A DNA stretch of 64,000 nt from an uncultured Defluviitaleaceae bacterium (GTDB lineage: Bacteria > Bacillota > Clostridia > Lachnospirales > CAYPQA01), in the NCBI GenBank assembly GCA_964611385.1, contig CAZSXS010000004.1, forward strand, positions 1,782-65,781. The letters run 5' to 3'. The position numbers and the translations under genes are program-made. This document shows positions 5,721-62,866 of this stretch, piece by piece. The first letter of the stretch is position 1. Each line of letters starts with the position of its first letter. Under the pieces are notes generated by a model. It was not told the DNA's origin, ran no database searches, and saw only the letters and a list, made by a program, of their open reading frames with translations.

Positions 5721-6899
5721 TTACATCCGATATGTTGGCTTTGGCTCCTTTGGTGAAAAGGCTTCTGTACTTAAAGCGGACAAGGTCAAGCCATAGGATT
5801 CGGCCACAGCTTTCAGGGTATTTTCTGTAATTTCGGCAAGTCGCTGGGGATTGCTGACGGCTCGGATATTTATAATTAAAGAGGAGTCTTTCCGTAAGGG
5901 AAGGCTCATTTTTTTTGAAGAGTCCAGGGAAAAGCCGTCTTGAAGGCTCACGCAGCTTAGCTTACAAAATTCATGCTCACTGGACAAATAAAGTTTCATA
6001 TGAGCCAAGTCGGGCGAATCTTGCATTTGATCTCTTAGGGCTTCGGCCAAAGCCAGAAGGAATTGGTTGCCGTCTATGTCTTGATTTTCCGCTTCGGTCT
6101 GCAAGGGTCCGGACGATAAGGCTCCGGTTTGCAAGGTAGCCGACGTATTTAACCAGCCCAAGTCGGCTTCTGCTTTGGCATAGCGTTGGTAATCAATGTC
6201 GAGGGACTGGCCTGGGTCTTTCGGGTCTAAGTCCATGAGCCTTCCGAGCCAGGGCGTTAGGCTACTGGGTTCCCTTGCGCTGACAGCAAGGATTTCTTTG
6301 CCGGGGTAGCTGGTTTCCAGGAAGGACAGCATTTGTTTCTTTTCGGCTTCCGTCAGGGTATCGATTTTATTCAGAACAAGGATGTCGGCTTCTTCAATTT
6401 GCTTGCTAAACAGATAATTGATCTCGTTGAGCACCCCGGCATCTTTTCCGTCTGCACTTGCCAGGCGCTTTTTCTCACGGATGAGTCTGGAAAGCCGCTT
6501 TGGATCAAGCACGACGGACAGGGGCAGCAGTTTGAAATGAAGTCTTTTGTGGACGGAGCTGTGGAGCGGTTTGATAATGGCAGCCACCAAGTCTGTACAA
6601 CTGCCCACCGGTTCCGCAAGGATGAGATCTGGGGCGTTTTCGGACATGGTTTGCAGCTTCCGCGTAAACTCGTCAAAGTTACAGCAGAAGCAGCCCCCTG
6701 TTACTTCAAGGACATCCAACCCCATGCTCTTTAAAAAAGCGGTATCCACCAGCTGACTGCCCTGATCGTTAGTGACTACGCCTACCTTTTTGCCTGCCTG
6801 TAGCAGAAGCTTGGCCATTTGGGCAATGGAGCTTGTCTTTCCGGCGCCCAAAAAGCCTCCCACTACCACCAGTTTTGTATGGATCTTTGCTTCATTCAT
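5721..6899 (-). CDS. G3E-family P-loop GTPase, COG0523/CobW-like putative metallochaperone
   Basis: Motifs seen: Walker A GGFLGAGKTS, metal-binding-type motif GGCFCC, Walker B-like ILAEPVGS, and NKID. The start ATG overlaps the upstream gene's stop (ATGAATGA). Confidence 0.8.
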   Translation of the reverse strand: MNEAKIHTKLVVVGGFLGAGKTSSIAQMAKLLLQAGKKVGVVTNDQGSQLVDTAFLKSMGLDVLEVTGGCFCCNFDEFTRKLQTMSENAPDLILAEPVGSCTDLVAAIIKPLHSSVHKRLHFKLLPLSVVLDPKRLSRLIREKKRLASADGKDAGVLNEINYLFSKQIEEADILVLNKIDTLTEAEKKQMLSFLETSYPGKEILAVSAREPSSLTPWLGRLMDLDPKDPGQSLDIDYQRYAKAEADLGWLNTSATLQTGALSSGPLQTEAENQDIDGNQFLLALAEALRDQMQDSPDLAHMKLYLSSEHEFCKLSCVSLQDGFSLDSSKKMSLPLRKDSSLIINIRAVSNPQRLAEITENTLKAVAESYGLTLSALSTEAFSPKEPKPTYRM

Positions 6900-7197
6900 C
6901 TTCCATCAGCTCCAATATTTGATTGATTTGTTTGGGTGTTATGATGGTTCCAGCGGATATTTGTTCGTCATTAATTAAAACGGCCGGGAGCTTTTCAACC
7001 TCCAGGCCGGATATTTTTTCGAAATCAAGACAAAGAGCCTGGCTCAGTGTCTTGATTTCGATCAGTTCCCAGGAAAAGTCCTTTCTTGTTTCCGAAAGCT
7101 TATCGAGGGTTTCTATGTTTAAGGAATTAATGATGACACAAGCCGTGCAAGGCGCGCTTTGAACGATCAGTTTTGCATGAAATCTTGTGCTTTGCAT
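6892..7197 (-). CDS. Small thioredoxin-fold protein (Thioredoxin_3 / redox-active-disulfide-protein-2-like), CxxC = CTAC
   Basis: 101 aa. APCTAC sits near the N-terminus, and the C-terminal LPAVLINDEQISAGTIITPKQINQIL resembles the tPalvidGe..v.G..Ps pattern of small Trx-like proteins. It is paralogous by eye to the C-terminal domain of the upstream gene. Confidence 0.55.
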   Translation of the reverse strand: MQSTRFHAKLIVQSAPCTACVIINSLNIETLDKLSETRKDFSWELIEIKTLSQALCLDFEKISGLEVEKLPAVLINDEQISAGTIITPKQINQILELMEDE

Positions 7198-7202
7198 TTT
7201 AC

Positions 7203-8555
7203 TTACAGTCCTTTTTTCTTTAAACCATCCACGAAGGAGGCCTTTAAGGTATCGTGATCTGGAATGATGGAGATAAATTTAATTTCTCCGTCAACGCAAA
7301 TGGTGGGGATATTGGAAACGCCTAACTTCAACATAACGGCGACGGATTCCTTTTCCTTGACCTTGTATTCCTTGATCGACAGGTTCTTCAGGTCTGAAGC
7401 GGCTGTCCGAACGGCTTCCATCATGTACTGACAGGGTGCGCAAGACTCGGAGTCAAGCGTGATCACATCAATGTAAACCGTGCTTTGGTCGCTGTAATCA
7501 GGCAAGGAAACCTCAATGCCGGAAAGAGGGCTGACGCTTTCCATCAGGTCTGCAACTTCTCCATGAACCACAGCCGCAACAGCTTCTGCGTTTTCCACGG
7601 GAACATCAAAGGGCATGTCACAGCCTGGTGAAAGCACAAAGCCTTTTGTGCCGCCGATGGCCAGGCAGTTCATAGCGTCATTTATGTTGTCGGCAACACT
7701 TCCGAACAGCATGGTAAGCGTAAGCTTAATGTTCCCGCCGAAGGAAATATTATACTTTCTGCAAACGTCCCGAACATAGTCCAGAGGAATATTCTCGTCG
7801 ATAGACAAGCCGTCAGGACCGCTCTTACACATGACTTCAATGTTGTTCTTAGCGTTTCCGCAAACAAACAGAGTAACCAGCTTATTACGACTACGGACAT
7901 AGTCATAGATTTTTTTACAATAAGGCAAAACAAATTCCTCAAAGTTATCAGAAGAAATCTGGGAGGTCATAGGGTCTACAATGGCAATGATATCAACACC
8001 AGCATCCAGATACATTTTGGCAGTCTGTATGCCTACCTCAGCGCAGAAGTCCAGAAGCTTATAGGTTTCTTCCGGCTCGTCTATCATATTGTAGAAGATA
8101 TCGGTTCCCAGCAAGTGCAGAGCCAGGGTAAAGGGGCCAGTGATCAGGCCGTAAACCGCTTTGTCCTTTCCAACGGTCTCACAAATTTTGCGACAGGCAT
8201 CCAGGACAATGGGAAAGCGACCATCCTTTTCCGTCGGAATTTTTAAGTCAGCAAGCGTTTTACCCTCGGCTAAGGGGTGGGAGATAACAGAAGGAGGGTT
8301 ATGGGTAGCCCATTGGAGACGACAGCCCATGGCCTCAGCCTCAATCTGTAGGTCAAACAAAGCCGGGATTCCGTCAGCACGGTACTTCTCTACTGCCAGG
8401 CTTACTGCTTTCGTGATATGTTCACTGCTCTTGAAAAATTCTTCTGCGTTTACGCCGATCAGCTTCGCTGCATGACAGCCCACAAAGGGGACCCAGGGTG
8501 CTCTTGGCGTTTCTTGATTTTTAATGGCTGCTAAAACCAGTTCTTTTGAATTCAT
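7203..8555 (-). CDS. URO-D/MtaA/CmuA-family (methylcorrinoid-type) methyltransferase homologue fused to a C-terminal CxxC thioredoxin-like domain
   Basis: 450 aa. Residues 1-340 have URO-D-family features (PWVPFVGCHAAKL, ITGPFTLA, IVDPMTS, LFVCGN, SPGCDMP). Residues ~360-450 read VYIDVITLDSESCAPCQYM...GVSNIPTICVDGEIKFISIIPDHDTL, which is Trx-like. Confidence 0.8.
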   Translation of the reverse strand: MNSKELVLAAIKNQETPRAPWVPFVGCHAAKLIGVNAEEFFKSSEHITKAVSLAVEKYRADGIPALFDLQIEAEAMGCRLQWATHNPPSVISHPLAEGKTLADLKIPTEKDGRFPIVLDACRKICETVGKDKAVYGLITGPFTLALHLLGTDIFYNMIDEPEETYKLLDFCAEVGIQTAKMYLDAGVDIIAIVDPMTSQISSDNFEEFVLPYCKKIYDYVRSRNKLVTLFVCGNAKNNIEVMCKSGPDGLSIDENIPLDYVRDVCRKYNISFGGNIKLTLTMLFGSVADNINDAMNCLAIGGTKGFVLSPGCDMPFDVPVENAEAVAAVVHGEVADLMESVSPLSGIEVSLPDYSDQSTVYIDVITLDSESCAPCQYMMEAVRTAASDLKNLSIKEYKVKEKESVAVMLKLGVSNIPTICVDGEIKFISIIPDHDTLKASFVDGLKKKGL

Positions 8556-8582
8556 ATTTTAATTCCATCCTTATCTTTTATT

Positions 8583-8716
8583 TATACTCAGTCACGCTAG
8601 CTTTGCAAAGCCGCCGCCCAAAACAATAGAATTTAAGCAGGTTGAATGATGGCGGCTTGGTAAATGTTTAAGAGACTGAGTATAGCTACTTTGCAAAGTT
8701 GACAGTACTGAGTATA
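8583..8716 (+). repeat. Intergenic repeat family C: full copy C1 (8583-8684) plus an adjacent partial right end (8685-8716)
   Basis: Terminal inverted repeats TATACTCAGT and ACTGAGTATA flank ~80 bp containing CTTTGCAAAGCCGCCGCCC. The reverse complement matches 23085-23186 almost base for base. Confidence 0.8.
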
Positions 8717-8801
8717 AGTGACGAAAGCCCTGTTTTCTTTAACTATTTTATTTTTATTTGTAAATGATTATGGTTTCAGTTTTTACCAATCCGTTTTTTA
8801 G

Positions 8802-11157: not shown

Positions 11158-11946
11158 TTATATAGCAATCATCAAATAATCCCAACCATCGGAAGTATAC
11201 GCCTTTGTAAAACCGAAATGCAGGAAGGCCTTGCAGCTTTCACTGTTTTCGTATTGCGGAGATATTAGCGTTGACACGTTCATCATCTTGCATTGGCGTT
11301 TCATCTCGGCAAGCATTTTTTCCATGACAGCATCATTATCTCCACCAGTTAAAACAAAATTGTTATCGAAAAGGAAGCCAAGTGGCAATCCGAATGGTTT
11401 TTCCATTGGGAGCGCCATAACCACTTTACCGTCAACCTGTGCAACAAGATGAATACCCTCTCGGCGCTCTAGTTTTTCGATCGATGGCAAGATTTTAACC
11501 TCCGTAATCTGCCTTGGTGTCATTGCACTGTAAACATTTTCCCACAAGTCTTGAACGTCGTCTTTACATATGGGACGAATAACGATTTTTGAATTTTCCA
11601 CTAGCTTTATCCCCTTTGTTTTTGGTTTTCGTGCATGTTCGGCATACTCCTTTGGCGATACGCCGAATTGTGCGGTAAAAGCTCTTGTAAATCCCGCGTG
11701 AGTGCCAAAGCAGTAGTCCATTGCTACTTCGCAAATGCCTTTTCCGTGGGAAATTTCAATTGCACTGGCATAAATACGTTGTTCACGAACATACTCCATG
11801 ATCGACTGCCCTGTGACCCCCTTAAACTCGCGAGCAAAGTGATAAGCCGAATACCCGACAAAACGCGCTATTTCATCAAGTGAAAATTCGTCTTTCAAAT
11901 GTTCAGATACAAAAGATTTTACCTTGTCAATGTGTGCCTGTTCCAT
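11158..11946 (-). CDS. AraC-family HTH regulator fused to a GNAT-like C-terminal domain
   Basis: I place the start at ATG 11946 (MEQAHIDKV; RBS GGAGAAGGA), not the track's 12165. The N-terminal HTH_18 pattern is LDEIARFVGYSAYHFAREFK...EVAMDYCFGTHAGFTRAFTAQFGVSP. The C-terminal ~150 aa (IVIRPICKDDVQDLWENVY...) looks acetyltransferase-like. Confidence 0.75.
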   Translation of the reverse strand: MEQAHIDKVKSFVSEHLKDEFSLDEIARFVGYSAYHFAREFKGVTGQSIMEYVREQRIYASAIEISHGKGICEVAMDYCFGTHAGFTRAFTAQFGVSPKEYAEHARKPKTKGIKLVENSKIVIRPICKDDVQDLWENVYSAMTPRQITEVKILPSIEKLERREGIHLVAQVDGKVVMALPMEKPFGLPLGFLFDNNFVLTGGDNDAVMEKMLAEMKRQCKMMNVSTLISPQYENSESCKAFLHFGFTKAYTSDGWDYLMIAI

Positions 11947-12090
11947 AAGATCAATCCTTCTCCGTACGGTAACTTTATTATAACGAATATTTTGTACAAA
12001 GCTTTTCGTGAATTGCGGATTTAAAACATAGAAATTCAGAGAACGATACTCTTTCTTCTGAGCAGAATATAATTTTTCGGGTAGGGGTAA

Positions 12091-12130
12091 AACCCAAAAA
12101 ATCGGGGTTACGGCATATTGCCGTAACCCC
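12091..12130 (-). terminator. Rho-independent terminator of ychF
   Basis: A 12-bp stem GGGGTTACGGCA/TGCCGTAACCCC (12104-12130) is followed on the minus strand by GATTTTTTGGGTTTT. Confidence 0.75.
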
Positions 12131-12165
12131 AGTATTAACAAATAAAAATGAATAAAACAATCCAC

Positions 12166-13245
12166 TTACACATTAAACCTAAACAAAGTCACATCCCCAT
12201 CTTTCATGACATATTCCTTACCCTCCAGGCGCACCAGACCTTTTTCTTTGGCAGCGGTGTAGGAGCCTAGGCTGATGAGGTCGTCATAGTTGACAATTTC
12301 CGCTCGAATAAAGCCCCGCTCAAAGTCCGTATGGATTTTTCCCGCAGCTTGGGGCGCCTTTGAACCCTTCTTAATGGTCCAGGCCCGCACTTCCTTTGGC
12401 CCTGCGGTCAAAAAGCTGATGAGACCCAGTAACTCGTAGCTGGCTTTGATGATTCGTTCCAGACCACTTTCCTCTAAGCCCAAATCTTGTAAAAACAAAA
12501 GCTTTTCGTCCTCGTCCAATTGGGCAATCTCTGCTTCTATCTTGGCACAGACCACGAAAACCTGGGAACCCTCCGACTTCGCATAGGCTTCAAGCGTGGC
12601 TACATGCTCGTTGTGAAGTGCTTCCTCGGAAACATTAGCAGCATAGATGACCGGCTTTGTAGTCAGCAGATTCAAGCTGGCTACGATGGCCTTATCCTCT
12701 TCATCGAAGCTCAGGCTTCTTGCCGACTGTCCCTTGTTCAGGGTTTCGATGATTTGCTCAATGAGTTCCGCTTCTCTTTGATAGGACTTGTCTGCCTTAA
12801 GTGCCTTGCCGATTTTGGACTGGCGGCGTTCCAAGCTGTCCAGATCTGCATAGATCAGCTCCAAGTTGATGGTTTCGATATCGCGGCAAGGATCCACGGT
12901 TTGATCCACATGGATCACATTGCCATCCTCGAAGCAGCGCACCACATGCAGCAGTGCGTCCACCTCCCGAATGTGGGACAAAAACTGGTTGCCCAGCCCC
13001 TCTCCCTTGGAAGCCCCCCGCACCAGACCGGCTATATCGACAAACTCCACTACGGCGGGAATTAACTTTTCCGATTTATACAGCTCTTGCAGCCGGTTTA
13101 GCCTATCATCTCTCACCGGAACGATGCCCACATTGGGGTCTATGGTACAAAACGGATAATTGGCCGCCTCGGCCCCCGCCTTGGTCAAAGAATTAAACAA
13201 AGTGCTTTTGCCCACATTGGGAAGCCCAACAATCCCTAATTTCAT
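12166..13245 (-). CDS. ychF: Ribosome-binding ATPase YchF
   Basis: [27 protein letters not shown], the C-terminal TGS-type region, and the full-length family pattern. Confidence 0.9.
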
Positions 13246-14675: not shown

Positions 14676-16526
14676 ATGAAAACGCTAACAATAACAATCT
14701 TTTTTCTTGTACTGTTGTTGAATTCAAATGTTTTTGGAGAAGAACTAAGCGATGCACATTTTTCATCCACTACAACTGAATTCACGGCACAAGAAGCAGA
14801 GGCAGAAAAAACAGAGACACAAGAAACAAAGGCAGAAGAAGCAGAGACCGTGGAGTCCGTAGAAACGGCTGTAGATTTAACAGAAGAAGCTGTGAATCGA
14901 ACACAAGCAGCTGTGCTTCTATCAGGGGAAACTGAACCAATGATTGAGGAAGCCATACAATCTGCAGAAACGGAGAAGCTCTGCGTAGAAGCTGCACCAC
15001 AGCTTACAGACGACTCTAAAAGCACAAAGGAGACAGCAGAGGCAAGGGAGGAAATCCTTAGCTCCGCTGCGTCCTACATCACACAATATGAACCCTATTC
15101 GGCGGGAATATTACCCGAAGCAAGCTATGAGCTGCTTCCGAAATTCAGCTATGCTTATTTAAGCCTACCGATTAATGCACAGGGAACAGCGTATACAGGG
15201 AATGTGCAATTGCCCGTGCAATGGAACAGAGAAGAGTTTGAGGCAAACATGGCGGCGGGAAAAACCGAATTTGAGATATCCGGTGATTTCGTCCTTCCTG
15301 ATGGAGGCCTGAGCCTAGACTCTGTTGTTAACTCTGAGGGCAAGGAATATTACCTGAGCGATTCGATTTTAGTACTGCAGAGTCCTGGTGCTGACTTGCG
15401 CCCAACTTTCTCCGTAAGGTGTTTAAATGAGCCGATCAATAACTTTGAGATTCGCTCCATCATTCCGCCGGATTTTAAAAACATTTATTACTTTGAGTTT
15501 GCGATTCCGTATTTATTGGTTACTGAAAGTGAGCATCATAGTGTTGTGGTCGAGGTTCAGAAAACCCTGGATGGAAGTATCTTTGAAAATGCAGCATTCA
15601 GAAACGCCCGCTCTGTTGCCAACTGGAGAGAGGACCGCTATCAGTACCGAATTGACTCATCCATAGCGATTGAGGACCCTTCGGTGCCTGTTGGTTACCG
15701 TGTCGTCGTTCAGAACGGGCCGCGTGCAGGTAACTCCAATGTTGCTTGGGCCACCTATGACAGTGAACAATTCCGCAAAACCGACAACGGGTATGTCCCT
15801 TATATCCCTCCGCTTGTTGAACCCGATAAAGAAAGCCCCCCTATAACGCCAAGTCCTTCACCTTTGCCTTCACCTTCGCCTTCACCTTCGCCTTCACCTT
15901 CGCCTTCACCCCCCTCTACTCTTCCCCCGTCGAATTCTTCGCCCTCCGAATCCACAAATCAACCCTCTGAGGATGCGAGTTTAAGAGATAAAAGCGATGA
16001 AAGCGAAGGCGGCTTCGATGGAGGAACACGAGGCGGTGGTACAAGCCAAACTGCCGGGAGTAAGACCACGGAGGATAAAGTCACCTACAGCGGCACTCAG
16101 CTGGAGAAGACTGTTTCCCATGGAAAAAATACAGAAATTTCACTTGATGATGTGAAAGTCACGATAGAGAATGAAGTTTTAAAGACACTGCCCAATGGTA
16201 TTTTTGATACCTTTTCTGTTTCTGTAAAAAAGCGATCCGATGACAGCTTTTATGTAAGCCTCTTGAGCAATAAAAAAGAAGTAAAGCACTTAAAATATAC
16301 CGTCTGCCTGCCCTACACCGCCCCGGAGGGGTATGAATCTATTGAGGTTACCATAGATGAAACCTCAATAGACGAGTTTACATATGATGAGGACGCAAAA
16401 ACAATCACGCTTACGACCGATAAGACAGGGCTGATAAAAATAAAAGCTGTTATTCATTCCGTCCCCGATGAGAGTAAGCCAGAGGAATCAGAAGGATCAG
16501 AAAAATCGGCCTTTGAGCCTAAGTAA
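14676..16526 (+). CDS. Secreted/cell-surface protein with acidic N-terminal region and Pro-Ser linker, function unknown
   Basis: I place the start at ATG 14676 (AGGAGG at 14661-14666). Signal-type N-terminus MKTLTITIFFLVLLLNSNVFG, an E/T/A-rich region, and an SPSPLPSPSPSPSPSPSPSPP linker. Confidence 0.7.
   Translation: MKTLTITIFFLVLLLNSNVFGEELSDAHFSSTTTEFTAQEAEAEKTETQETKAEEAETVESVETAVDLTEEAVNRTQAAVLLSGETEPMIEEAIQSAETEKLCVEAAPQLTDDSKSTKETAEAREEILSSAASYITQYEPYSAGILPEASYELLPKFSYAYLSLPINAQGTAYTGNVQLPVQWNREEFEANMAAGKTEFEISGDFVLPDGGLSLDSVVNSEGKEYYLSDSILVLQSPGADLRPTFSVRCLNEPINNFEIRSIIPPDFKNIYYFEFAIPYLLVTESEHHSVVVEVQKTLDGSIFENAAFRNARSVANWREDRYQYRIDSSIAIEDPSVPVGYRVVVQNGPRAGNSNVAWATYDSEQFRKTDNGYVPYIPPLVEPDKESPPITPSPSPLPSPSPSPSPSPSPSPPSTLPPSNSSPSESTNQPSEDASLRDKSDESEGGFDGGTRGGGTSQTAGSKTTEDKVTYSGTQLEKTVSHGKNTEISLDDVKVTIENEVLKTLPNGIFDTFSVSVKKRSDDSFYVSLLSNKKEVKHLKYTVCLPYTAPEGYESIEVTIDETSIDEFTYDEDAKTITLTTDKTGLIKIKAVIHSVPDESKPEESEGSEKSAFEPK
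15853..15911 (+). repeat. In-frame (CCTTCACCTTCG)n microsatellite encoding the (PS)n linker
   Basis: Read directly: ...agtccttcacctttgccttcaccttcgccttcaccttcgccttcaccttcgccttcaccc. Confidence 0.8.
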
Positions 16527-53915: not shown

Positions 53916-54046
53916 GTATTCGTACTGCAATACTGGGACCAAGCTGTTCTTCTCCAAGCAACAAAAACCCTCATAATATTAATACTAATTCTCTTGTAAT
54001 TCTGAAGCTTTGTCGTGAATTAGTTTGGTAACTTTTTCATAATCTG

Positions 54047-54075
54047 TTGACATTGCGTTGGCTTTTATGTACTAT
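54047..54075 (+). promoter_or_regulatory. Candidate sigma-A promoter of the chemoreceptor gene
   Basis: TTGACA (54047-52), 17-nt spacer, TACTAT (54070-75). Confidence 0.5.
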
Positions 54076-54203
54076 GTGTTGTAGCGCAAACGTAAGGCTG
54101 ACATATGCTTCCTTTTTAATCAATCGAGGGTATCCCTCTATTTTAGACTTTGTGCTATTTTTTATAATTGTTGGAAACCAACAGAATTTTGGAGGGGAAT
54201 TTA

Positions 54204-56456
54204 ATGAATTGGTACAGGAACATGAGAATCAAATCAAAGCTTCTAGCTAGTTTCGGGTTAGTCATTATTGTTTCTATCGTTATGGTAGCGTTTGCCGTCA
54301 TGGCTATGAAGAATCTGGGTTCACGGTATAAACTGTTAATAAGCGGCCCTATACATGCGAGAACTTATGTTATTTCAGTTGGAAGAAATTTTTCAAGGGC
54401 TAATCTTAATTTACAAAACATTGTGGGTTTTTTTGGTAGCAAGGATGAGCTTAATTCAGATAAAGAGAATCTGAATTACTTTGTCAATGAAGCTATAATT
54501 GAATTAGGCAAGTACAAAGATTCTATAAATAGTGACGAATCCTTAGATAAAAAATTTGTCGATGAACAAATTACTTGGGCTGATGAATTGATTGCTGATA
54601 TTAAAAATAATTATATTCCATTATGTGATCATATTGTTTCAACAATATATACGGATAAAGACAAAGCAATGCAAGATACCTTAGTAGTAAATAAAATTGT
54701 AGATGAAATAAACGATCATCTAGATCAAAAGGGAACTGAATTGAATGATTTATTTGATGATCAATTATATAGAATGCAACGGTTTGAGGACGCTTCACAC
54801 GTTTTTATGAATGTATTTTCCGGGTTTTTGACAACTATAACTATACTGATTACACTCTATGTTGCGAAGGTTATTACAAAGCCTATTAAGCAATTAATGA
54901 GATGCGCTGACAAAGTGGTGAATGGTGATTTTAGCGAAAAAATCGCAATTACCCAAACGAATGATGAAATCGATCAACTATCAAATCATATAGCGCAAAT
55001 GGTATCCATATTTGAAGCGATCATAAATGAAGTTTCCAAATTTAATGTTGAGTTTAGCCAAGGAGATATTGAGGCTCGGCTTAATTCGGAAGGCTTTCAC
55101 GGAAGATATAAAGACATTATTGATTCAATTAACAATTTAGTGAATATCTTTGGGGAGGATAACACAACGCTGATTGGTTACATGAAAAATATTGGTGAAG
55201 GTATCTTTGATTTTGAGGTGAAAAAATTCCCTGGCAAAAAGGTTATTTTAACAAACACCATCACAAATGTTCAAAGTAATTTAATTCAAGTGTCCAATGA
55301 GATTAATAACCTAATTAAGCAAGCCACAGCCGGAAATCTGAATTGTCGGTTTAATTCTAATCAATATCAGGGTGATTGGAAAAACATAATGGATGCGCTC
55401 AATATGCTGGTTACTGCAATCTCTATTCCTTTAAGAGAAGTGCAGCACGTTTTATCCAGGATAGAAGAAGGCGATTTTTCTGCCAAAATGGAAGGGAAGT
55501 TTGAGGGAGAATTTGCTACGATGCAAAGCAGCTTGAATCAAACGACTCACGAAGTAGGTTCTTATATTACTGAAATAAGCGAAATACTTAAAGATGTGTC
55601 CAATGGCAACTTAAAAAAAGGCATTATCAGAAATTATGTTGGCCAGTATGATCAAATCAAGCTTTCAATCAACAATATCATTCAGACCCTTAACAGAGTT
55701 ATTTGTGATATTGGTATATCGGCTAATAATGTTTTATCCGGAGCCAACCAGATCTCTTTAAGCTCAATTGATTTAGCGAACGGAGCAACAAAGCAAACTT
55801 CCTCGATTGCTGAGCTTATGTCATCCATTAAGATGATCAGTGAAAAAACACAATTAAATACGACAAATTCACAAACCGCTACTGAGCTATCCGACCGATC
55901 CATAGAGAATGCACGCTTGGGTAATGAAGATATGGATCGGATGTTGTCATCTATGGATGGGATCAAGGAATCTTCAAACAATATATCAAAACTAACAAAG
56001 GTCATTGAAGAAATCGCTTTTCAGATCAATCTTCTGGCGTTTAATGCATCAATTGAAGCTTCTCGAGCTGGTCAGTATGGAAGAGGATTTTCCGTTGTAG
56101 CTGGTGAAGTGCGCAATCTTGCCTTAAGAAGCCAAGAAGCGGTTAGCGAAACCACTCAGTTAATTGAAGAATCAATTGAAAAAGTGGATACAGGTACAAA
56201 AATAGCAAATATTACAGCCTCTGCTTTAAACACGATTATCAATGATGTCGTTTCTATCTCCAAAATGATAAACCAAATATTTAGTTCAACTAAAGAACAG
56301 GGTCAAGCGATCTATATGGTTAATGATGAAATTACTGAAATCTCTTCTGTTGTTCAAAGCAATTCTGCTGCGTCTGAAGAAACAGCAAGTGCCGCCGAAG
56401 AACTTGTGTCTCTGTCTCAAGCGCTTACTAATGCAGTTTCTTATTTTACAGTTTAG
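54204..56456 (+). CDS. Methyl-accepting chemotaxis protein with periplasmic helical sensor and extended HAMP-repeat region
   Basis: Start ATG 54204 (GGAGGGG RBS). TM1, ~170-aa loop, TM2, ~250 aa of HAMP-like repeats, and the conserved signalling hairpin EIAFQINLLAFNASIEASRAGQYGRGFSVVAGEVRNLA. Confidence 0.85.
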   Translation: MNWYRNMRIKSKLLASFGLVIIVSIVMVAFAVMAMKNLGSRYKLLISGPIHARTYVISVGRNFSRANLNLQNIVGFFGSKDELNSDKENLNYFVNEAIIELGKYKDSINSDESLDKKFVDEQITWADELIADIKNNYIPLCDHIVSTIYTDKDKAMQDTLVVNKIVDEINDHLDQKGTELNDLFDDQLYRMQRFEDASHVFMNVFSGFLTTITILITLYVAKVITKPIKQLMRCADKVVNGDFSEKIAITQTNDEIDQLSNHIAQMVSIFEAIINEVSKFNVEFSQGDIEARLNSEGFHGRYKDIIDSINNLVNIFGEDNTTLIGYMKNIGEGIFDFEVKKFPGKKVILTNTITNVQSNLIQVSNEINNLIKQATAGNLNCRFNSNQYQGDWKNIMDALNMLVTAISIPLREVQHVLSRIEEGDFSAKMEGKFEGEFATMQSSLNQTTHEVGSYITEISEILKDVSNGNLKKGIIRNYVGQYDQIKLSINNIIQTLNRVICDIGISANNVLSGANQISLSSIDLANGATKQTSSIAELMSSIKMISEKTQLNTTNSQTATELSDRSIENARLGNEDMDRMLSSMDGIKESSNNISKLTKVIEEIAFQINLLAFNASIEASRAGQYGRGFSVVAGEVRNLALRSQEAVSETTQLIEESIEKVDTGTKIANITASALNTIINDVVSISKMINQIFSSTKEQGQAIYMVNDEITEISSVVQSNSAASEETASAAEELVSLSQALTNAVSYFTV

Positions 56457-56507
56457 TTTTGTTCCCTTTGTATCTTTTACTTTTTATTTGAAAAGGAGGA
56501 AGAAAAA

Positions 56508-57353
56508 ATGATTGCAATGGATAACTTTGAAAGGTGGCAACAAATACTATTTACTGATAAGGCAACAGCAGTATTAAATAGTAATGAAAAAGCGGATTTG
56601 GATAAACTCTCATTAGAAAAAAGAAACGACTTACTGAGGGATCTGCTTGAGAAACCTGTGGGTGATGTAGGTGTACTGCACCCCTTATACTTTAGAAATA
56701 AGTGGGCTGATGCATTGTTGGCGACAGGGCTTCAGGCACCTGTATCTGTATTTGAAATAGCCCCCGGCTCTAATGATGTCATTCCATTAACGGTATCTCG
56801 TATCTTTAACCATCCCCAAACGTCCTATACGGCAGCTAATACAAATAAACAGTTAACCCAATATCTTTATGAAAAAACAAGCCATCTGCCAATTAAAATA
56901 AAAGTCATTGAGGAACAGGCGCAAATGATGGGTGTTTATGCTCAGCCTAGTCAATTTGATGCGGTGCTGTTTGAACATGCCGTGAACGATATTATGTATG
57001 ACATGATTGCCCGAAAGAATGGCTTGGATACCATTCATGAAGACTGGTTTGGTATTCTTCCGAAAATTATCAGCTGTATGAATAGCGAATATGCCAATGG
57101 CACCTATGAAAGTACGATCAAAGAGGAACTTCTTGGGGTGTTTTCATCTTGTTTGGATACCTTAAAGGAAGGTTCTTACATCATAATCAATCATTTTATG
57201 TATCAAGCCGATTTAGATTTGGGGCTAAATTATGAATTGTGGGAAACGCTCCTTCCAACAGTTCGAAAATGGGTCGAAGAGGCAAAGATTGGTAAAGAAG
57301 TGTTTTTTGACGGATTTGAGCCTCAGTGGTGGATGTTTATACAGAAGGCGTGA
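56508..57353 (+). CDS. Hypothetical protein, possibly a degenerate Rossmann-fold methyltransferase-like protein
   Basis: 281 aa with a strong RBS (AAAGGAGGAAG). Weak class-I MTase-like segments are VFEIAPGSND, AVLFEHAVNDI and GSYIIINHF. The assignment is tentative. Confidence 0.45.
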   Translation: MIAMDNFERWQQILFTDKATAVLNSNEKADLDKLSLEKRNDLLRDLLEKPVGDVGVLHPLYFRNKWADALLATGLQAPVSVFEIAPGSNDVIPLTVSRIFNHPQTSYTAANTNKQLTQYLYEKTSHLPIKIKVIEEQAQMMGVYAQPSQFDAVLFEHAVNDIMYDMIARKNGLDTIHEDWFGILPKIISCMNSEYANGTYESTIKEELLGVFSSCLDTLKEGSYIIINHFMYQADLDLGLNYELWETLLPTVRKWVEEAKIGKEVFFDGFEPQWWMFIQKA

Positions 57354-57479
57354 GAGGGAAAGACTGTCAGTGCATGAGGTTGCTCAGCTCGAATCTTGCT
57401 GAATTTCATTCGCATTTTATGCGTTATGAAAGATGGGCGTAAATACCACAGACGAGAACAATCTTTATAGAGGTAAAAA

Positions 57480-58418
57480 ATGAAAACAGCAATCATTTCA
57501 GATGTTCACGGAAACTACAGCGCATTAATCAAAGTGATTGAACATGCAACTTTGAACAAAGTGGATCGATTTATTTTTATAGGAGACTATGTATTTGACT
57601 TGCCATTTTCTAATGAAGTGGTGAAGTATATTTCCTTACTAAAAAACGCCGATGTTGTTTTGGGAAACAAAGAAGTCTATTTAAAAGCATTGTCCCAAGA
57701 AAATCAAGCAGCGTGGGTATTTGACCAAATGGGGGCAATGTACCAAACCTATCGTGAACTGTCCGAGGAAGCACTTGCTTTTATTTCAACACTTAAAGAA
57801 GACGCCTATATTCCGCTTCAAAGCGGTGGCTTTATTTACGCAAGCCATTATCCAAAAGACATGCTGCAAGGAATCAAAGCAGATTGTACAAGCTCGCAAT
57901 TCCATAAGAAAATGATAGAAAGGCTCTTTTCTCATGAACAGTTTCTTTGTGATTTTAGTGAATTACTAAAGCAGGATGAGTTTAAAAGCTTATTTGGTAA
58001 AATAGAGGCTAAGGTTATCTTGTTTGGCCACAACCATTTACAAAGCTATGGATATTGTGGTGAAAAGCTCATTATTAACCCTGGTTCTTGCGGACTACCC
58101 CTTGACTTTGACACTCGAGCCTCTTATACCATGCTGGAAGAAACAGAATCCGGCCTTGCTGTCATTGAACATCGAGTTGAGTACGATATTGAGGCTACTA
58201 TTGAGCAAACAAAAAAGTCAAAAGTCTATGCGTGCGGTAGGGTTTGGTTGGAACTGGTTTTTTTGGCAATGAGGACGGGTAGAGACTATTTTGGACTGTT
58301 TTTTAAAATTGCAACTGAATTAGCAATTTCCAAAGGCGAAACAAGCGGCTTCTTTACCAACGAAACTTGGAAACAAGCTTATACTAATTTTTTAGATCAT
58401 GTGAGGTGGATGCAATGA
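57480..58418 (+). CDS. Calcineurin-like metallophosphoesterase (YfcE/MJ0936-type) with C-terminal extension
   Basis: Motifs seen: ISDVHGN, IGDYV, GNKE, GHNH and PGSCG. Confidence 0.8.
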   Translation: MKTAIISDVHGNYSALIKVIEHATLNKVDRFIFIGDYVFDLPFSNEVVKYISLLKNADVVLGNKEVYLKALSQENQAAWVFDQMGAMYQTYRELSEEALAFISTLKEDAYIPLQSGGFIYASHYPKDMLQGIKADCTSSQFHKKMIERLFSHEQFLCDFSELLKQDEFKSLFGKIEAKVILFGHNHLQSYGYCGEKLIINPGSCGLPLDFDTRASYTMLEETESGLAVIEHRVEYDIEATIEQTKKSKVYACGRVWLELVFLAMRTGRDYFGLFFKIATELAISKGETSGFFTNETWKQAYTNFLDHVRWMQ

Positions 58419-59140
58419 GAACATTTGAAAGCCCTGCATATTCAAAAGTAAATGCACAAGTCTTCGGAGAAGACTTAAAGCAAATGGGGATGGCAACTAT
58501 AAAGCAGGTGGAAAAATTGGCTCTGATACTGCCAAAGGGTGGGAAACTATTGGATTTAGGCTGCGGGGCAGGGCAAATAACAAAGTGGTTTGCTGAAAAA
58601 TTGCAATGCGAGGCAGTTGGAATTGATCTTGATGATGAGGCTATTTCTTATGCCACTGCACATAACGCTAATGCAAAAATTGAGTATAAAAAAATGGATT
58701 TTTTAGATATCAACTTGCCGAATAACGATTTTTCCATTGTGCTTTCGATTGACACCCTTTATTTTTGTAAATCCATTGACAATATTCATAAAGTCCTTTC
58801 ACGCTGTATAGAATTGCTGAGCGATAATGGTATTATTGCTGTTTTTTGGGAAAACTGCCCTGCTACTATCTACGAAAATAAAACAAACACGCCACAAGGA
58901 ACCCCTATCGGAAAATGGGCAAATGAAATGGGGTATCGTTTTGAAACAATTGATTTTTCAAGTGAATTGATGGATTTTTGGAAATCATGGAGATACTTTG
59001 AAGACAGTAAGGACGAATTGATTGCAGAAATAGGTGAGGCGGCATTTGCTGAATCAGAGCAAGAGTTTAAATTTATGATCAGCTATTTTGAAAAAAATCC
59101 TAACTATATAGGAAGATGGTTGTTCTTGATACATAAATGA
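58415..59140 (+). CDS. Class I SAM-dependent methyltransferase
   Basis: LLDLGCGAGQIT motif I, acidic loop GIDLDD, and IVLSIDTLYF. The likely ATG 58415 overlaps the upstream stop (ATGA). Confidence 0.8.
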   Translation: MRTFESPAYSKVNAQVFGEDLKQMGMATIKQVEKLALILPKGGKLLDLGCGAGQITKWFAEKLQCEAVGIDLDDEAISYATAHNANAKIEYKKMDFLDINLPNNDFSIVLSIDTLYFCKSIDNIHKVLSRCIELLSDNGIIAVFWENCPATIYENKTNTPQGTPIGKWANEMGYRFETIDFSSELMDFWKSWRYFEDSKDELIAEIGEAAFAESEQEFKFMISYFEKNPNYIGRWLFLIHK

Positions 59141-59217
59141 AGGAGTGGGCTTTCTTGAGGGGGAATACCTCAGCTGGTGGTCTAATGAGTTGTAAGTTTA
59201 TCCGAAATTTGGCGGAT

Positions 59218-59276
59218 TCTATGCAAAACAAAAGCGAGTGCTAAAAGTAAAAGCACTCGCTTTTGTTTTGCATAGA
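59218..59276. terminator. Perfect 25-bp inverted repeat (probable bidirectional terminator or protein/recombination site)
   Basis: TCTATGCAAAACAAAAGCGAGTGCT (59218-42), loop AAAAGTAAA, then AGCACTCGCTTTTGTTTTGCATAGA (59252-76). I checked every pair by hand. There is no U-run beyond the stem. Confidence 0.5.
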
Positions 59277-59514
59277 AACTGGGGCCATATATTTGTGGGA
59301 TAATTGTCGTTGAACTTAACAGCGAGGGCTACCGCTATGGGAGGATGTTGAAGATTAAAATATACCTTCAATGAATTTCTGTTGCGAAATTTTCTAACGC
59401 TTGCCCTTGTGTCATTTTGTATTCTGCTTTATAATGCATTATTAAGGCGAAAGACAGAGAGCCATACAAAGCATTTATTTATAGCATATAATAAATTACC
59501 ATAGGTGAAGTACG

Positions 59515-60573
59515 ATGATAAAATTGAGCCCAAAGTACTTTTTGTTATCCATTCTATTTTTATTCATTGAAATACTAATAGCGATATATATTCACGATTC
59601 GTTGGTTCGGCCTTACGTTGGTGATATCATTGTTATTTTACTGATATATTCTATATATCGCTCTTTTTTTAGCGTCAACATCAAGTGGGTTCCTATTTGC
59701 ATATTTATTTTTGCCACTGCTGTGGAGCTAATGCAGCTGGTAAACATTGTTTCCTTATTAGGGCTAGAGGATAATAGAATTGCACGTGTTGTGCTTGGCA
59801 CGACTTTCGATTTAAAAGACATAGCTTGTTATTTTGTAGGAACATTGTTGGTAATTGCATGGAAAAAAATCAACAATACGGCCTTACAAATGCTTGTCAT
59901 ATTTCTTGCGGGATTAACCTCTATGGTTACTTTTATAATTCTTGCTTACAATGGTTTATGGTGGCCAATTGACCCTGTATTAATGGGTTATGAAATAAAA
60001 GGAGTTGATGTAGCCAGATATCAAGGGGATATTGACTGGGAAATTCTGCATGAGAAGGGGATTAAATTTGCTTTTGCAAAAGCCACTGAAGGCAGCTCCT
60101 ATAAAGATCCATATTTTGATATGAATGTGATAAATGCTGAAGGTGCAGGGATTCATACAGGCGCCTATCATTTTTTCAGAACAGAAACAACAGGTCATAA
60201 TCAAGCTGAAAACTTTCTTAATTCAATTATTAAGTATACATTGACAATGCCACCTGTTTTGGACTTTGAAGTAGCTGACAATGAAGATGATATTGAAAAA
60301 AGACGCATAATTAATGAAACAAAAGCCTTTCTTTTGAAAGTAGAAGAAGCGTTAGGCGTTAAACCATTGATTTACTCAACATATGAAAGCTATTATGCTT
60401 ATTTAATAGATGACTTTGGTGAGTATGATTTTTGGATGAGAGATTTAATCAAACAGCCTTCTATACCGAATGGTAGAATTGTTATTTGGCAATATTGCAA
60501 TAGGGGCAGATTAGAAGGTATAGATGCTAGTCAGAAATATGTTGACTTGAATGTGTTGTTTTGGTTGGACTAA
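59515..60573 (+). CDS. DUF2809-like membrane domain fused to a GH25 muramidase (lysozyme)
   Basis: The N-terminal ~115 aa (IHDSLVRPYVGDIIVILLIY...AVELMQL...VLGTTFDLKDIACYFVG) looks like DUF2809. An extra TM follows, then GH25 motifs GVDVARYQGDIDW, FAKATEG and GAYHF. Confidence 0.8.
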   Translation: MIKLSPKYFLLSILFLFIEILIAIYIHDSLVRPYVGDIIVILLIYSIYRSFFSVNIKWVPICIFIFATAVELMQLVNIVSLLGLEDNRIARVVLGTTFDLKDIACYFVGTLLVIAWKKINNTALQMLVIFLAGLTSMVTFIILAYNGLWWPIDPVLMGYEIKGVDVARYQGDIDWEILHEKGIKFAFAKATEGSSYKDPYFDMNVINAEGAGIHTGAYHFFRTETTGHNQAENFLNSIIKYTLTMPPVLDFEVADNEDDIEKRRIINETKAFLLKVEEALGVKPLIYSTYESYYAYLIDDFGEYDFWMRDLIKQPSIPNGRIVIWQYCNRGRLEGIDASQKYVDLNVLFWLD

Positions 60574-60817
60574 AGGTTGATGAAAGAGATTGCTCTGTAA
60601 ACATTGTCTGAATACCCTGCATGAGCTTATATAATAGCAATGGCAGTTAAGATATGTTTGCATCAAAATATCCTGATAAAGTTGATGCATTGTTTTATTT
60701 GGTTACTCAGACGTTAAGTTGAAAGACCTTCAGATATGGCAATGTACGAAAGTTGAAGGTGGTAACATAATATAAAACCGAAATATTGAACAATAGAATT
60801 TCTTAGGAGGATAAAAG

Positions 60818-61741
60818 ATGGATGAGGTTATGAGAAATCAGAGTAAGGAACTTGCAAAGCGTTATCATGAAGCGATTGAGAGCTTTGTGGACAAGGTTCG
60901 TGGCGACCCAAATGTAATTGCTGTTATTGTATATGGCAGTGCGGCACGGGGAGCAGTTTGGGAGCGGAGTGATATTGATATTGATGTCATAATACGAGAT
61001 CAGAAACTTGATAAAAAGAGTTTTTGTTTGTATGAAGATAATATATTACTAAACATAGGTATCGGTCAGCGTAGTGATATGCGACGCTATATGGAAAAAA
61101 CATTAACAGGCTCGGTAGGTCATTCCTTTGCTACAACATCAAAGGTGGTATATACCACGGACGAAACTATCAACGAATATTTCGAGGAAAACAAGAAAAT
61201 CGGACAAGCAGACGTTGAAAAAAGCATCTTCTTTTCCATTATGGGGCTTCTGGGTACCATGGAAAAGGTGGAAAAATGGATTGTCACCATAAACGACCTT
61301 ACCTATGCACGGTATTATCTCACCATCGCCGCTGATGGGGTGGCAAAAATTGAGGTATCCTCACACAATGAAGTACCCACCCGTGAAGCCATACGGCAAG
61401 CGGAAAGGCTTAACCCTGCGCTTATGAAAAAATTTTATCATAGACCGCTTGCAGGTGATATGACGAGAGAAGAAATTTTAGCAACCCTCAAAGATATGGA
61501 CGACTATCTTATGACACATATTGATGCTGTACTTAATGTCGTAAGAGGACTGTTTGGCGATGGCGAAATAAAAACAGGTACACAAATCAGTAATTATTAC
61601 AATGCGAGTATGCATGATTTGCACGGTATTTTAGATTGGTTATGCGATAAAAATTATCTTATCAAACTTTCGCAGACCATACGCATTACACCAAAAAGTA
61701 GGCTTGCAGTAGAAGAAGCGGCATTTATGATGCCTGTGTAA
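60818..61741 (+). CDS. Pol-beta-fold nucleotidyltransferase with helical C-terminal domain
   Basis: VIVYGSAARGAVWERSDIDIDVII (the GS...DxD minimal NTase motif) and RBS AGGAGG. Confidence 0.7.
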   Translation: MDEVMRNQSKELAKRYHEAIESFVDKVRGDPNVIAVIVYGSAARGAVWERSDIDIDVIIRDQKLDKKSFCLYEDNILLNIGIGQRSDMRRYMEKTLTGSVGHSFATTSKVVYTTDETINEYFEENKKIGQADVEKSIFFSIMGLLGTMEKVEKWIVTINDLTYARYYLTIAADGVAKIEVSSHNEVPTREAIRQAERLNPALMKKFYHRPLAGDMTREEILATLKDMDDYLMTHIDAVLNVVRGLFGDGEIKTGTQISNYYNASMHDLHGILDWLCDKNYLIKLSQTIRITPKSRLAVEEAAFMMPV

Positions 61742-61771
61742 CTTGTTATGCATCCCAGGAGGTAAATACAC

Positions 61772-62866
61772 ATGCCAGACTTAATCAAAAACAGATACAA
61801 TCACGAATCACTTCGAGAACTCGCCTTGGACATTCAATCGGTCTATAGCGAATTTCAGATAGACGAGTTTTTATTATCAACAATGAATGAAACATGGGAA
61901 AATTTAGAGCTAAAAGATAGATTAATACAAATAAGTATGAACTTGGGTAAATACTTGCCTGGGGATTATAAAACAGCCATTGGTATTATTGATAAAGTGG
62001 TCATGAACTATGGCACCTGGCTGGACGGCTTTGTTGTCTTCTTTCCAATTTTTGTTGAGATTTACGGGCAAGATGAAGCCAATTGGGATGTTTCTATGGC
62101 TGCCTTGGCGAGATATACTCAGTATGCATCTTCGGAGCTTGCAGTAAGGTCATTCATCATTAACCACGAAAAGCGTATGATGGCACAGATGTATGCTTGG
62201 TCCAAGAATGAAAATGAGCTGGTCCGAAGGCTTGCTTGTGAAGGTTGTCGCCCTCAATTGCCGTGGGGGCAGGCATTAACCAGTTTCAAAAAAGACCCTA
62301 CGCCTATCTTGCCTATCTTGGAACAACTGAAGGTCGACCCGTCGCTTCATGTACGAAAAAGTGTCGCCAATAACCTAAACGACATTTCCAAGACACACCC
62401 GGATTTAGTTGTAAAGCTTGCAAAGGATTGGTACGGTAAAAATGAGAATACAGACTGGATCGTAAAGCATGGTTGCAGGACACTACTTAAAAAAGGGAAC
62501 CGTGATCTCCTGGCTCTTGTTGGATATGATGATGATACTTCAATTGATATCCATGACTTTGCTTTAGATGAAACATTGATTTCGATTGGTGAGGATATTA
62601 CTTTTTCTTTTGTAGTTTTGGCAAAGGAAGCGACAAAAGTACGATTGGAATATGGAATCGACTATGTGAAATCCAATGACAAAAGAAACAGAAAAATATT
62701 TAAAATATCGGAAGTTTCAGTAAAAGAAAATGAAAAGAAGTTATACCAGAAAAAACATTCCTTTGCAGATCTAAGTGTAAGGAAGCATTACCCAGGTATC
62801 CATTCGATTACGCTTATTGTCAATGGGGTAGAGCAGGGCAAACTGGATTTTGAGTTGACAGAATAA
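61772..62866 (+). CDS. HEAT-like-repeat DNA alkylation repair protein (AlkC/AlkD superfamily) with beta-rich C-terminal domain
   Basis: LVRRLACEGCRPQLPWGQAL and HVRKSVANNLNDISKTHPD resemble the DNA_alkylation family. The last ~110 aa are beta-rich, as in AlkC proteins that carry an Ig-like domain. This is by-eye only. Confidence 0.6.
   Translation: MPDLIKNRYNHESLRELALDIQSVYSEFQIDEFLLSTMNETWENLELKDRLIQISMNLGKYLPGDYKTAIGIIDKVVMNYGTWLDGFVVFFPIFVEIYGQDEANWDVSMAALARYTQYASSELAVRSFIINHEKRMMAQMYAWSKNENELVRRLACEGCRPQLPWGQALTSFKKDPTPILPILEQLKVDPSLHVRKSVANNLNDISKTHPDLVVKLAKDWYGKNENTDWIVKHGCRTLLKKGNRDLLALVGYDDDTSIDIHDFALDETLISIGEDITFSFVVLAKEATKVRLEYGIDYVKSNDKRNRKIFKISEVSVKENEKKLYQKKHSFADLSVRKHYPGIHSITLIVNGVEQGKLDFELTE

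Follow-up and report, generated by a model that had tools for sequence, protein, structure and literature searches.

Background

Corrinoid methyltransferases act in anoxic habitats including the gut, where they transfer the methyl groups of methanol, methoxylated compounds, methylamines, and methyl-sulfur and methyl-selenium compounds. A substrate-specific enzyme (methyltransferase 1, MT1) demethylates the substrate and methylates a corrinoid protein, from which an acceptor-side enzyme (methyltransferase 2, MT2) takes the methyl group; the known bacterial acceptor-side enzymes are pterin-binding and feed tetrahydrofolate. MtaA of methanogens, by comparison, is a methylcobamide:thiol MT2 of the URO-D superfamily. 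MtaA-like proteins are also found in bacteria, in mlp gene clusters of type 1, which combine Mlp1-3 with a corrinoid protein and Ram/RACE and in which the MtaA-like Mlp are proposed to demethylate methyl-selenium and methyl-sulfur compounds (Kountz and Balskus, preprint, PMC10418091). Among the COG0523 GTPases, subfamily 13 has been noted by Haas et al. 2009 (PMC2770081) to co-localize with corrinoid methyltransferases, MtaA and MtaB, both of them zinc enzymes. Here, three adjacent genes are described on a 64,000-nucleotide stretch of DNA (the window) from an uncultured Defluviitaleaceae bacterium (contig CAZSXS010000004.1): gene 1, encoding an MtaA-like URO-D barrel fused to a thioredoxin-fold (Trx) domain (UroD-Trx); gene 2, a small free-standing Trx protein; and gene 3, a long-type G3E GTPase resembling COG0523.

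This trio is a real, conserved, and uncharacterized module, probably consisting of a corrinoid methyltransferase and a COG0523 chaperone; the pairing is known, whereas the fusion, the Trx partner, and the long GTPase appear to be new. An earlier interpretation made from the letters of the window (the sequence-only reading) did not recognize the three genes as a characterized system. This is congruent with the literature searched, in which we found no characterization of the trio and no study that deals with the fusion, its small Trx partner, or the long GTPase; the pairing of COG0523 proteins with corrinoid methyltransferases is the one element already described (PMC2770081). We consider it moderately probable that the product of gene 1 is an MtaA-type methyltransferase that depends on a corrinoid and has a Cys-rich, non-canonical metal site, for whose maturation a GTPase of its own and a thioredoxin-like helper are responsible.

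Gene organization

The three open reading frames (ORFs) are closely packed on the minus strand (Table 1). Genes 1 and 2 are separated by 5 nt (TAA GTAAA ATG), while genes 2 and 3 share an 8-nt overlap, ATGAATGA, the start of gene 3 lying inside the end of gene 2. Shine-Dalgarno-like sequences precede the start codons of gene 2 (AAGGA) and gene 3 (GGAG). The genes form a single operon. The sequence-only reading had given the same layout, including the gap and the overlap, with which the ORF coordinates and the sequence agree exactly, and all three of the domains that it had named, URO-D (PF01208), Thioredoxin_3 (PF13192), and cobW (PF02492), were matched in Pfam.

Table 1. Coordinates (window numbering) of the three genes, their domains and motifs, and the upstream region. 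AF2, AlphaFold2.
Feature	Position	Strand	Evidence or remarks
Gene 1, UroD-Trx: MtaA-like URO-D barrel plus C-terminal thioredoxin-fold domain, 450 aa	7203..8555	minus	ORF, Pfam, AF2
URO-D/MtaA-type (beta/alpha)8 barrel, residues 3-331	7563..8549	minus	Pfam stretch; phmmer to 4AY7 2.9e-30, residues 5-328
F230-V-C232-G, position of the MtaA H-x-C zinc motif, Phe for His	7857..7868	minus	alignment to 4AY7 LHICGN
C312 (SPGCDMP), position of the MtaA distal zinc-ligand Cys	7620..7622	minus	alignment to 4AY7 APGCGI
Gene 1 thioredoxin-fold domain, residues ~358-450 (beta-alpha-beta-alpha-beta-beta-alpha)	7206..7484	minus	PF13192 residues 369-437; AF2
C372-A-P-C375, start of first Trx helix	7431..7442	minus	invariant 78/78, within TLDSxSCAPCQY
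Gene 2, free thioredoxin-fold protein, 101 aa	6892..7197	minus	PF13192 2e-06
C17-T-A-C20 of gene 2	7138..7149	minus	PC[TSQ][AS]C invariant in free-standing orthologues
Gene 3, long-type COG0523-like G3E GTPase, 392 aa	5721..6899	minus	PF02492 1.9e-27
P-loop GGFLGAGKT, residues 14-22	6834..6860	minus	invariant, alignment of 30 orthologues
G-C70-F-C72-C73 (GCFCC, residues 69-73), COG0523 CxCC metal-binding motif	6681..6695	minus	orthologue alignment; YjiA GCICC opposite
Gene 3 C-terminal alpha/beta domain, residues ~225-392	5724..6227	minus	conserved motifs DIDYxxYAxAEAxLGWLN, EIAHLK, INxRA
5' leader/intergenic region	8556..8730	minus	long imperfect inverted repeats, TATACTCAGT and CTTTGCAAAG boxes; link to the operon uncertain

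An MtaA-like barrel with an altered metal site

The barrel of gene 1 is matched by PF01208 with an E-value of 4.3e-65. Its top NCBIfam matches are the MtaA/CmuA, methylcobalamin:coenzyme M (CoM) methyltransferase, MtaA, and MtbA models, with HemE much weaker. The best of these, TIGR01463 (mtaA_cmuA; 3.5e-56), is matched with a score of 190.9, below its cut-off of 235.4, and the protein also falls below the cut-offs of PRK06252 (174.7 versus 244), MtaA_Meth (149 versus 400), and MtbA (137.5 versus 600). The AF2 model is confident (predicted local distance difference test [pLDDT] 90.6; predicted template modeling score [pTM] 0.81). By sequence and by fold the best solved-structure match is M. 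mazei MtaA (4AY7), with which the barrel shares a template modeling (TM) score of 0.90 on the target, a 2.1-Å root mean square deviation, and 28% identity. In the fold ranking MtaA is placed ahead of all uroporphyrinogen decarboxylases (UROD) and far ahead of MetE.

Alignment with 4AY7 sets LFVCGN of gene 1 opposite LHICGN, with Phe in the place of the zinc-binding His, and SPGCDMP opposite APGCGI. The substitution of Phe for His with retention of the distal Cys had been proposed by eye in the sequence-only reading and is borne out by this alignment. A complete canonical H-x-C...C site is not present in gene 1, and F230, C232, C312, and the CxxC motif are invariant in 78/78 full-length family members from several phyla. 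The full set of invariant Cys, His, and Phe residues in these proteins comprises H28, C78, H93, H147, F230, C232, C312, C372, and C375. C78 and H93 are common to MtaA and the UroD-Trx family, whereas H28 and H147 are family-specific and lie opposite the Arg41-type and Tyr164 active-site positions of UROD; the latter pair are candidates for alternative metal ligands.

Most database annotations state that such proteins are true uroporphyrinogen decarboxylases (HemE), the source annotations reading "uroporphyrinogen decarboxylase (family protein)", and the PF01208 match and the invariance of D68, the equivalent of Asp86, are compatible with this. However, the score against TIGR01464 is 84 bits where the cut-off is 303, identity to the UROD structures is 16-23% as compared with 28% to MtaA, His28 and His147 occupy the Arg41 and Tyr164 positions, the Arg positions of the tobacco UROD motif RQAGR read FVGCH in gene 1, and the neighboring genes in related genomes are those of corrinoid methyltransferases and not of haem synthesis. 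A HemE function was rejected on the TIGR01464 score, the active-site residues, and the structural identity, and is regarded as extremely improbable.

The thioredoxin-fold modules

Both Trx modules match Thioredoxin_3 above its gathering threshold (24.8 bits), the domain of gene 1 with 29.6 bits (7.1e-07; residues 369-437) and gene 2 with 28.1 bits (2e-06). TIGR00412 (MTH895/ArsE) is matched with 28.1 and 21.2 bits versus a cut-off of 62, and assignment to that subfamily is not reached. The AF2 model of the gene 1 domain consists of strands at residues 360-366, 392-398, 418-421, and 424-428 and helices at residues 373-386, 402-411, and 434-447; C372-C375 begins the first of these helices, and P417 precedes strand 3 in a cis-Pro loop.

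Gene 2 orthologues follow directly after gene 1 in 32 loci, with PCxxC invariant and the cis-Pro (FPA/LPA) kept. In comparisons of gene 2 with four orthologues, the proportion of synonymous differences (pS) is 0.84-0.93, which is saturated and well above that of nonsynonymous differences (pN; 0.30-0.40). Judged on this conservation, the small ORF is a real gene, as the sequence-only reading had taken it to be. Gene 2 had also been called a paralogue of the fused domain. Their kinship stands at the profile level (hhalign probability 94.6%); close paralogy was rejected, as there is no BLASTP similarity between the two.

Several divergent relatives bear on what the CxxC motifs may do. Unfused proteins of ~335-345 aa (P0249, P0254, P0256, P0259, P0265, and P0268) carry F-x-C-G, and hence the Phe-for-His exchange is not tied to the Trx fusion. 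The CxxC is lost or degenerate solely in the divergent relatives P0252, P0308, and P0368. Of these, the fused P0308 and P0368 keep C312 and have SxxS or a single Cys instead of CxxC; together with the unfused proteins, they imply that the Trx CxxC is not strictly needed by the barrel. In P0252, a fused protein of 455 aa with 34% identity to gene 1, C232, C312, and the CxxC pair are all missing at once, H28 being kept; this is the sole hint of co-dependence among the four cysteines. Many loci of Bacteroidota lack the second Trx module, and in a large number of fused forms its CxxC is degenerate, both of which weaken the idea of CxxC as a ligand. The sequence-only reading had proposed that the missing metal ligand, or the methyl acceptor, might come from the CxxC modules. 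This idea appears somewhat weakened, H28 and H147 being available as alternative ligands as well, although the invariance of TLDSxSCAPCQY and the joint loss in P0252 speak for it. Given that the module is embedded in methyltransferase clusters of the catabolic type, it is unlikely that a protein thiol serves as the stoichiometric acceptor of the methyl group.

The same relatives would fit a second, less probable explanation, to which we give a minor but appreciable weight: that the CxxC modules are redox devices, which reduce a C232/C312 disulfide or a disulfide of the acceptor thiol, the GTPase then re-inserting the metal in the manner of a repair kit. Both modules possess the canonical thioredoxin layout, in which helix 1 begins with the CxxC and a cis-Pro loop is present, and the retention of C312 in CxxC-less fused relatives, as well as the existence of unfused F-x-C-G relatives, is what an accessory CxxC would lead one to expect. 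In Robinsoniella a lipoyl-domain protein and a lipoate ligase, a possible source of dithiol reductant, stand beside UroD-Trx. Oxidized MetE (PDB 1XR2), one of the structure matches of gene 1, forms a disulfide at its zinc site. However, the neighborhoods contain no conserved reductant such as a thioredoxin reductase, P0252 has lost all four cysteines at once, and the extended invariant motif around the CxxC hints at something beyond a generic redox site.

The long-type GTPase

The cobW domain of gene 3 occupies residues 11-202, the N-terminal half only. In the alignment of 30 orthologues C70 and C72 of the CxCC motif are invariant and C73 is found in at least 90%; the NKxD motif (LNKID) is conserved, and a further invariant Cys is located in an EPVGSC motif. 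The C-terminal segment, when searched alone, has no Pfam match, PF07683 (CobW_C) included. Even so, hhalign aligns gene 3 end to end with the neighboring short COG0523 proteins (probability 99.6), weakly over the C-terminal CobW_C region. The AF2 model (pLDDT 88.5; pTM 0.86) has its best Protein Data Bank (PDB) matches in E. coli YjiA (4IXN/1NIJ), followed by HypB and UreG, and YjiA aligns over both domains, their orientation differing. Gene 3 is below every NCBIfam CobW and ZigA cut-off. When compared with the 362-aa consensus, it contains two lineage-specific insertions (residues ~143-156 and 256-272), the second of which has low pLDDT (residues 266-268 below 50).

The best NCBIfam match of gene 3 is "CobW-related selenoprotein" (NF041053; 2.6e-18), and the Trx domain of gene 1 also matches "HUIPC motif thioredoxin-like selenoprotein" (6.8e-06). 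These matches indicate that relatives of both partners exist as UxxC selenoproteins.

A weak P-loop match of gene 3 to MeaB raises a further alternative, in which the module acts on the cofactor itself: in a CblC-like way, gene 1 would use a thiol to remove the methyl group of methylcobamide, yielding cob(I)amide, and the GTPase would load the cofactor in the manner of MeaB/MMAA. CobT is encoded in five related loci, cobalamin biosynthesis genes with a B12 riboswitch lie beside one methyltransferase cluster (L003), and orphan trios without a corrinoid protein are common. In L036, UroD-Trx and Trx are followed not by the GTPase but by a CobA-type adenosyltransferase-like gene, identified by eye. 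Yet the invariant CxCC and a fold like that of YjiA favor a metal chaperone over MeaB, and the commonest neighbors are corrinoid proteins of methyltransferases, RACo, and second methyltransferases. We consider this cofactor role improbable.

The adenosyltransferase-like protein of L036 (11962-12513) has 183 aa and resembles, by eye, cob(I)alamin adenosyltransferases of the CobA/BtuR type; CobT is encoded further downstream.

Distribution of the trio

A family scan employing one genome per species located UroD-Trx relatives in at least 590 species genomes. The best 80 belong to Bacillota, Bacteroidota, Verrucomicrobiota, Lentisphaerae, Halanaerobiales, KSB1, and others; the Trx domain is included in 77 of them, whose matches reach at least residue 432. 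The 450-aa architecture is common to more than 100 clusters at >60% identity. A G3E GTPase adjoins UroD-Trx in at least 52 of the 64 informative loci (about 80%) and the exact trio is present in 27 of them, so that the gene order recognized in the window is also found elsewhere. The free Trx protein co-occurs solely with the long-type GTPase (356-435 aa), with the single exception of L036. In other phyla gene 1 is often ~540 aa in length, as it contains a second Trx module of 86-89 aa in which the CxxC is partly kept; the next gene then encodes a COG0523 protein of the short form, in which a CobW_C domain is present. In some Bacteroidota the second Trx module is missing altogether.

Neighboring genes in related genomes

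Clustering of the neighbors at 82 loci reveals a B12-binding corrinoid protein (28), PocR-AraC regulators (18), and the activase RACo (14) as the most frequent, followed by a protein with a MetH activation domain (8), DUF2284 (6), CobT (5), MtaB (3), and DUF1638 (3). At the 40 loci with at least 5 kb on either side (well-flanked loci) a corrinoid protein is encoded at 17, RACo at eight, and a second URO-D methyltransferase at nine. Among 111 further neighbors at 26 corrinoid-protein loci, URO-D (13 members) is the sole recurrent Pfam family, and no recurrent pterin-binding methyltransferase was found. The second methyltransferase differs by locus: it is MtaB in L003, L024, and L027, an O-demethylase-like URO-D protein in L007, L045, and L054, and a URO-D protein with the canonical HxC...C in L029, L038, and L069. 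The order in L003 (Cellulosilyticum) is RACo, corrinoid protein, MtaB, cobW, UroD-Trx, Trx, and cobW. The set resembles MtaABC, with UroD-Trx as the sole candidate for the role of MtaA. In cultured C. estertheticum the trio is preceded by RACo, a corrinoid protein, URO-D, PocR, and DUF6951. The constancy of UroD-Trx beside variable MT1-type partners, together with the MtaB clusters, suggests an MtaA-like, acceptor-side role, in the pattern of a shared MT2.

These neighborhoods can also be read in the opposite sense. Gene 1 might itself be the MT1, demethylating a substrate such as a methyl-sulfur or methyl-selenium compound at its Cys-rich site and methylating a corrinoid protein, with genes 2 and 3 maturing the site and the acceptor enzyme encoded elsewhere. 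The characterized bacterial URO-D corrinoid methyltransferases are indeed all MT1s, the MT2s being pterin-binding (PMC13222342), and the MtaA-like Mlp are likewise proposed demethylases (PMC10418091). Many loci hold UroD-Trx and a corrinoid protein only, and the homocysteine S-methyltransferase of L063 could be the acceptor-side enzyme. On the other hand, the three MtaB loci already have their MT1 in MtaB, with no further acceptor-side methyltransferase inside 10 kb; UroD-Trx is constant beside a changing partner methyltransferase; and the nearest characterized relatives are MT2 enzymes. We judge an MT1 function to be rather unlikely, but an alternative to be taken seriously.

A number of loci have additional features. 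In L063, the gene of the 315-aa homocysteine S-methyltransferase (11824-12771; PF02574, 6e-71) lies between a 539-aa UroD-Trx and the GTPase, the same operon containing a corrinoid protein and a second URO-D protein. In Bacteroidota (L066, L067, L069, L072, L081, L083, and L085) the COG0523 gene is followed by a stand-alone, ~235-aa homologue of the MetH reactivation domain (PF02965, 4.7e-11); RACo is often next, resulting in two different corrinoid reactivation devices in one operon. In Lachnospiraceae loci (L038, L039, and L040 of Robinsoniella, at ~6.7-9.8 kb, as well as L051 and L053) UroD-Trx is preceded by DUF5714, a small Biotin_lipoyl protein, a short COG0523 protein, and a lipoate-protein ligase, and L053 (8299-9972) encodes a DUF5714-GTPase fusion. 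The presence of a lipoylated dithiol protein beside a CxxC enzyme may hint at the reductant or the acceptor. In L003 a cobalamin riboswitch (15286-15499; 99 bits) precedes cobyric-acid and cobinamide genes ~2.5 kb downstream of the MtaB/UroD-Trx cluster. The housekeeping neighbors of the orphan trios (L042 group), which were read by eye only, offered no functional hint.

Proposed function

According to the interpretation that we favor, gene 1 would be an enzyme of the MtaA branch (methylcobamide:thiol, MT2) of the URO-D superfamily. It would, most likely, take a methyl group from a methyl-Co(III) corrinoid protein and pass it to a nucleophile at a Cys-rich metal site in the barrel, to which C232, C312, and further ligands may contribute; as the acceptor, a thiol-type compound is favored over tetrahydrofolate. 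Gene 3 is envisaged as loading this site with a metal, probably zinc, via its CxCC, while gene 2 and the Trx domain of gene 1 would assist in this maturation, either by handing over the metal or by maintaining the ligand cysteines in reduced form. For this genome it would then follow that corrinoid protein, substrate-specific MT1, and activase are encoded outside the window.

Several observations weigh against this interpretation, in addition to the unfused F-x-C-G relatives and the CxxC-less fused ones. The zinc-binding His is absent in all 78 members checked and, since it is missing in every one, zinc binding and thiol activation are not assured. There is no corrinoid protein, MT1, or activase in the 64-kb window, nor in nine of the 14 well-flanked trio loci. 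The operon of L063 holds a separate homocysteine S-methyltransferase, that is, a second acceptor-side enzyme. Finally, the bacterial MT2s characterized to date bind pterin, and the characterized bacterial URO-D methyltransferases are MT1s (PMC13222342). With regard to the window, phmmer searches with seeds for the corrinoid protein, RACo, MtaB, PocR, CobT, and DUF1638, among which there was no MttB profile, gave no match. A scan for DxHxxG...SxL...GG was also without a match, and there is no second URO-D homologue. To the extent of these searches, the absence of corrinoid partners claimed in the sequence-only reading is upheld.

A more far-reaching version, which is speculative and in our estimation rather improbable, is that the trio represents a new metallocenter system, in which a Cys-rich site is formed between the MtaA-like barrel and the Trx CxxC and is assembled by the GTPase via a thiol relay, providing non-methanogenic, largely non-acetogenic anaerobes with an acceptor-side methyltransferase which does not use tetrahydrofolate. 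If true, it would explain the fate of the methyl groups of methanol, methoxy, and methylthio compounds in such anaerobes. In clusters without a pterin-binding methyltransferase, UroD-Trx stays the same while the MT1-type enzymes beside it vary; should it prove to be the acceptor-side enzyme, its substrate would define an unrecognized fate of methyl groups in fermentative anaerobes. UroD-Trx also offers a clean, genetically linked candidate client for a COG0523 GTPase, a family for which few clients are known.

Upstream region and other features of the window

The leader between the trio and a divergent ligA-like gene contains a 29-nt inverted repeat (8582-8610/8689-8717; 79% complementary), three copies of TATACTCAGT, and two of CTTTGCAAAG. 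Its predicted RNA fold has a free energy of -44.8 kcal/mol (z = -2.5), with the ribosome-binding region partly paired. The TATACTCAGT and CTTTGCAAAG repeats are not kept upstream of orthologues and are confined to this window, and a conserved upstream operator was accordingly rejected. Rfam gave no match in the window or in the leader; a known RNA or riboswitch upstream of the trio was rejected on this basis, the sole B12 riboswitch found being that of L003, which precedes cob genes and not the trio.

A PADLOC scan for anti-phage defense produced no match, and a defense role was rejected. Positions 54001-62000 of the window have a G+C content of 0.34-0.38, compared with ~0.45 elsewhere, and a strongly positive GC skew, and may represent a foreign or specialized gene island.

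Comparison with known systems

The closest characterized enzymes are the methylcobamide:CoM methyltransferases of methanogens. UroD-Trx shares the URO-D-type barrel of MtaA, MtbA, and MtsA and has kept both positions of the zinc-ligand cysteines, and in clusters of the L003 type it sits in MtaA's place with MtaB, a corrinoid protein, and an activase. It differs from MtaA in having Phe for His, two more invariant residues (His28 and His147), and a CxxC Trx domain fused to the barrel, and in its scores, which are below the cut-offs. Its host, a bacterium, would not be expected to produce coenzyme M.

The nearest described bacterial system is the type 1 mlp clusters, in which MtaA-like proteins are likewise clustered with a corrinoid protein and an activase in the absence of a tetrahydrofolate methyltransferase (PMC10418091). 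L029 and L086 have the same general composition. The description of the Mlps sets them apart from UroD-Trx, as they possess His-Cys-Cys and the paper mentions neither a Trx fusion nor a GTPase (PMC10418091). The window differs further from these clusters in containing a single MtaA-like gene with Phe at the His position and neither a corrinoid protein nor Ram/RACo.

Gene 3 resembles the COG0523 proteins (YjiA, ZigA, Zng1, and CobW) in its cobW GTPase domain, its CxCC, its top structural match to YjiA, and its adjacency to a gene of the MtaA/MtaB type. By contrast, the long form (~362 aa; 392 here) has a C-terminus without a PF07683 match and the extra Cys of EPVGSC, and it is obligately paired with a small Trx-like protein; we know of no thioredoxin-like component described for the COG0523 chaperone family.

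A more distant parallel is provided by the methionine synthases. MetE and the homocysteine domain of MetH use Cys-rich zinc sites to activate a thiol for methylation, and MetE is a remote structural match of the gene 1 barrel, although UroD-Trx does not belong to these enzymes at the sequence level. They are linked to the module by the MetH activation-domain homologue that follows the GTPase in Bacteroidota operons and by the PF02574 gene of L063.

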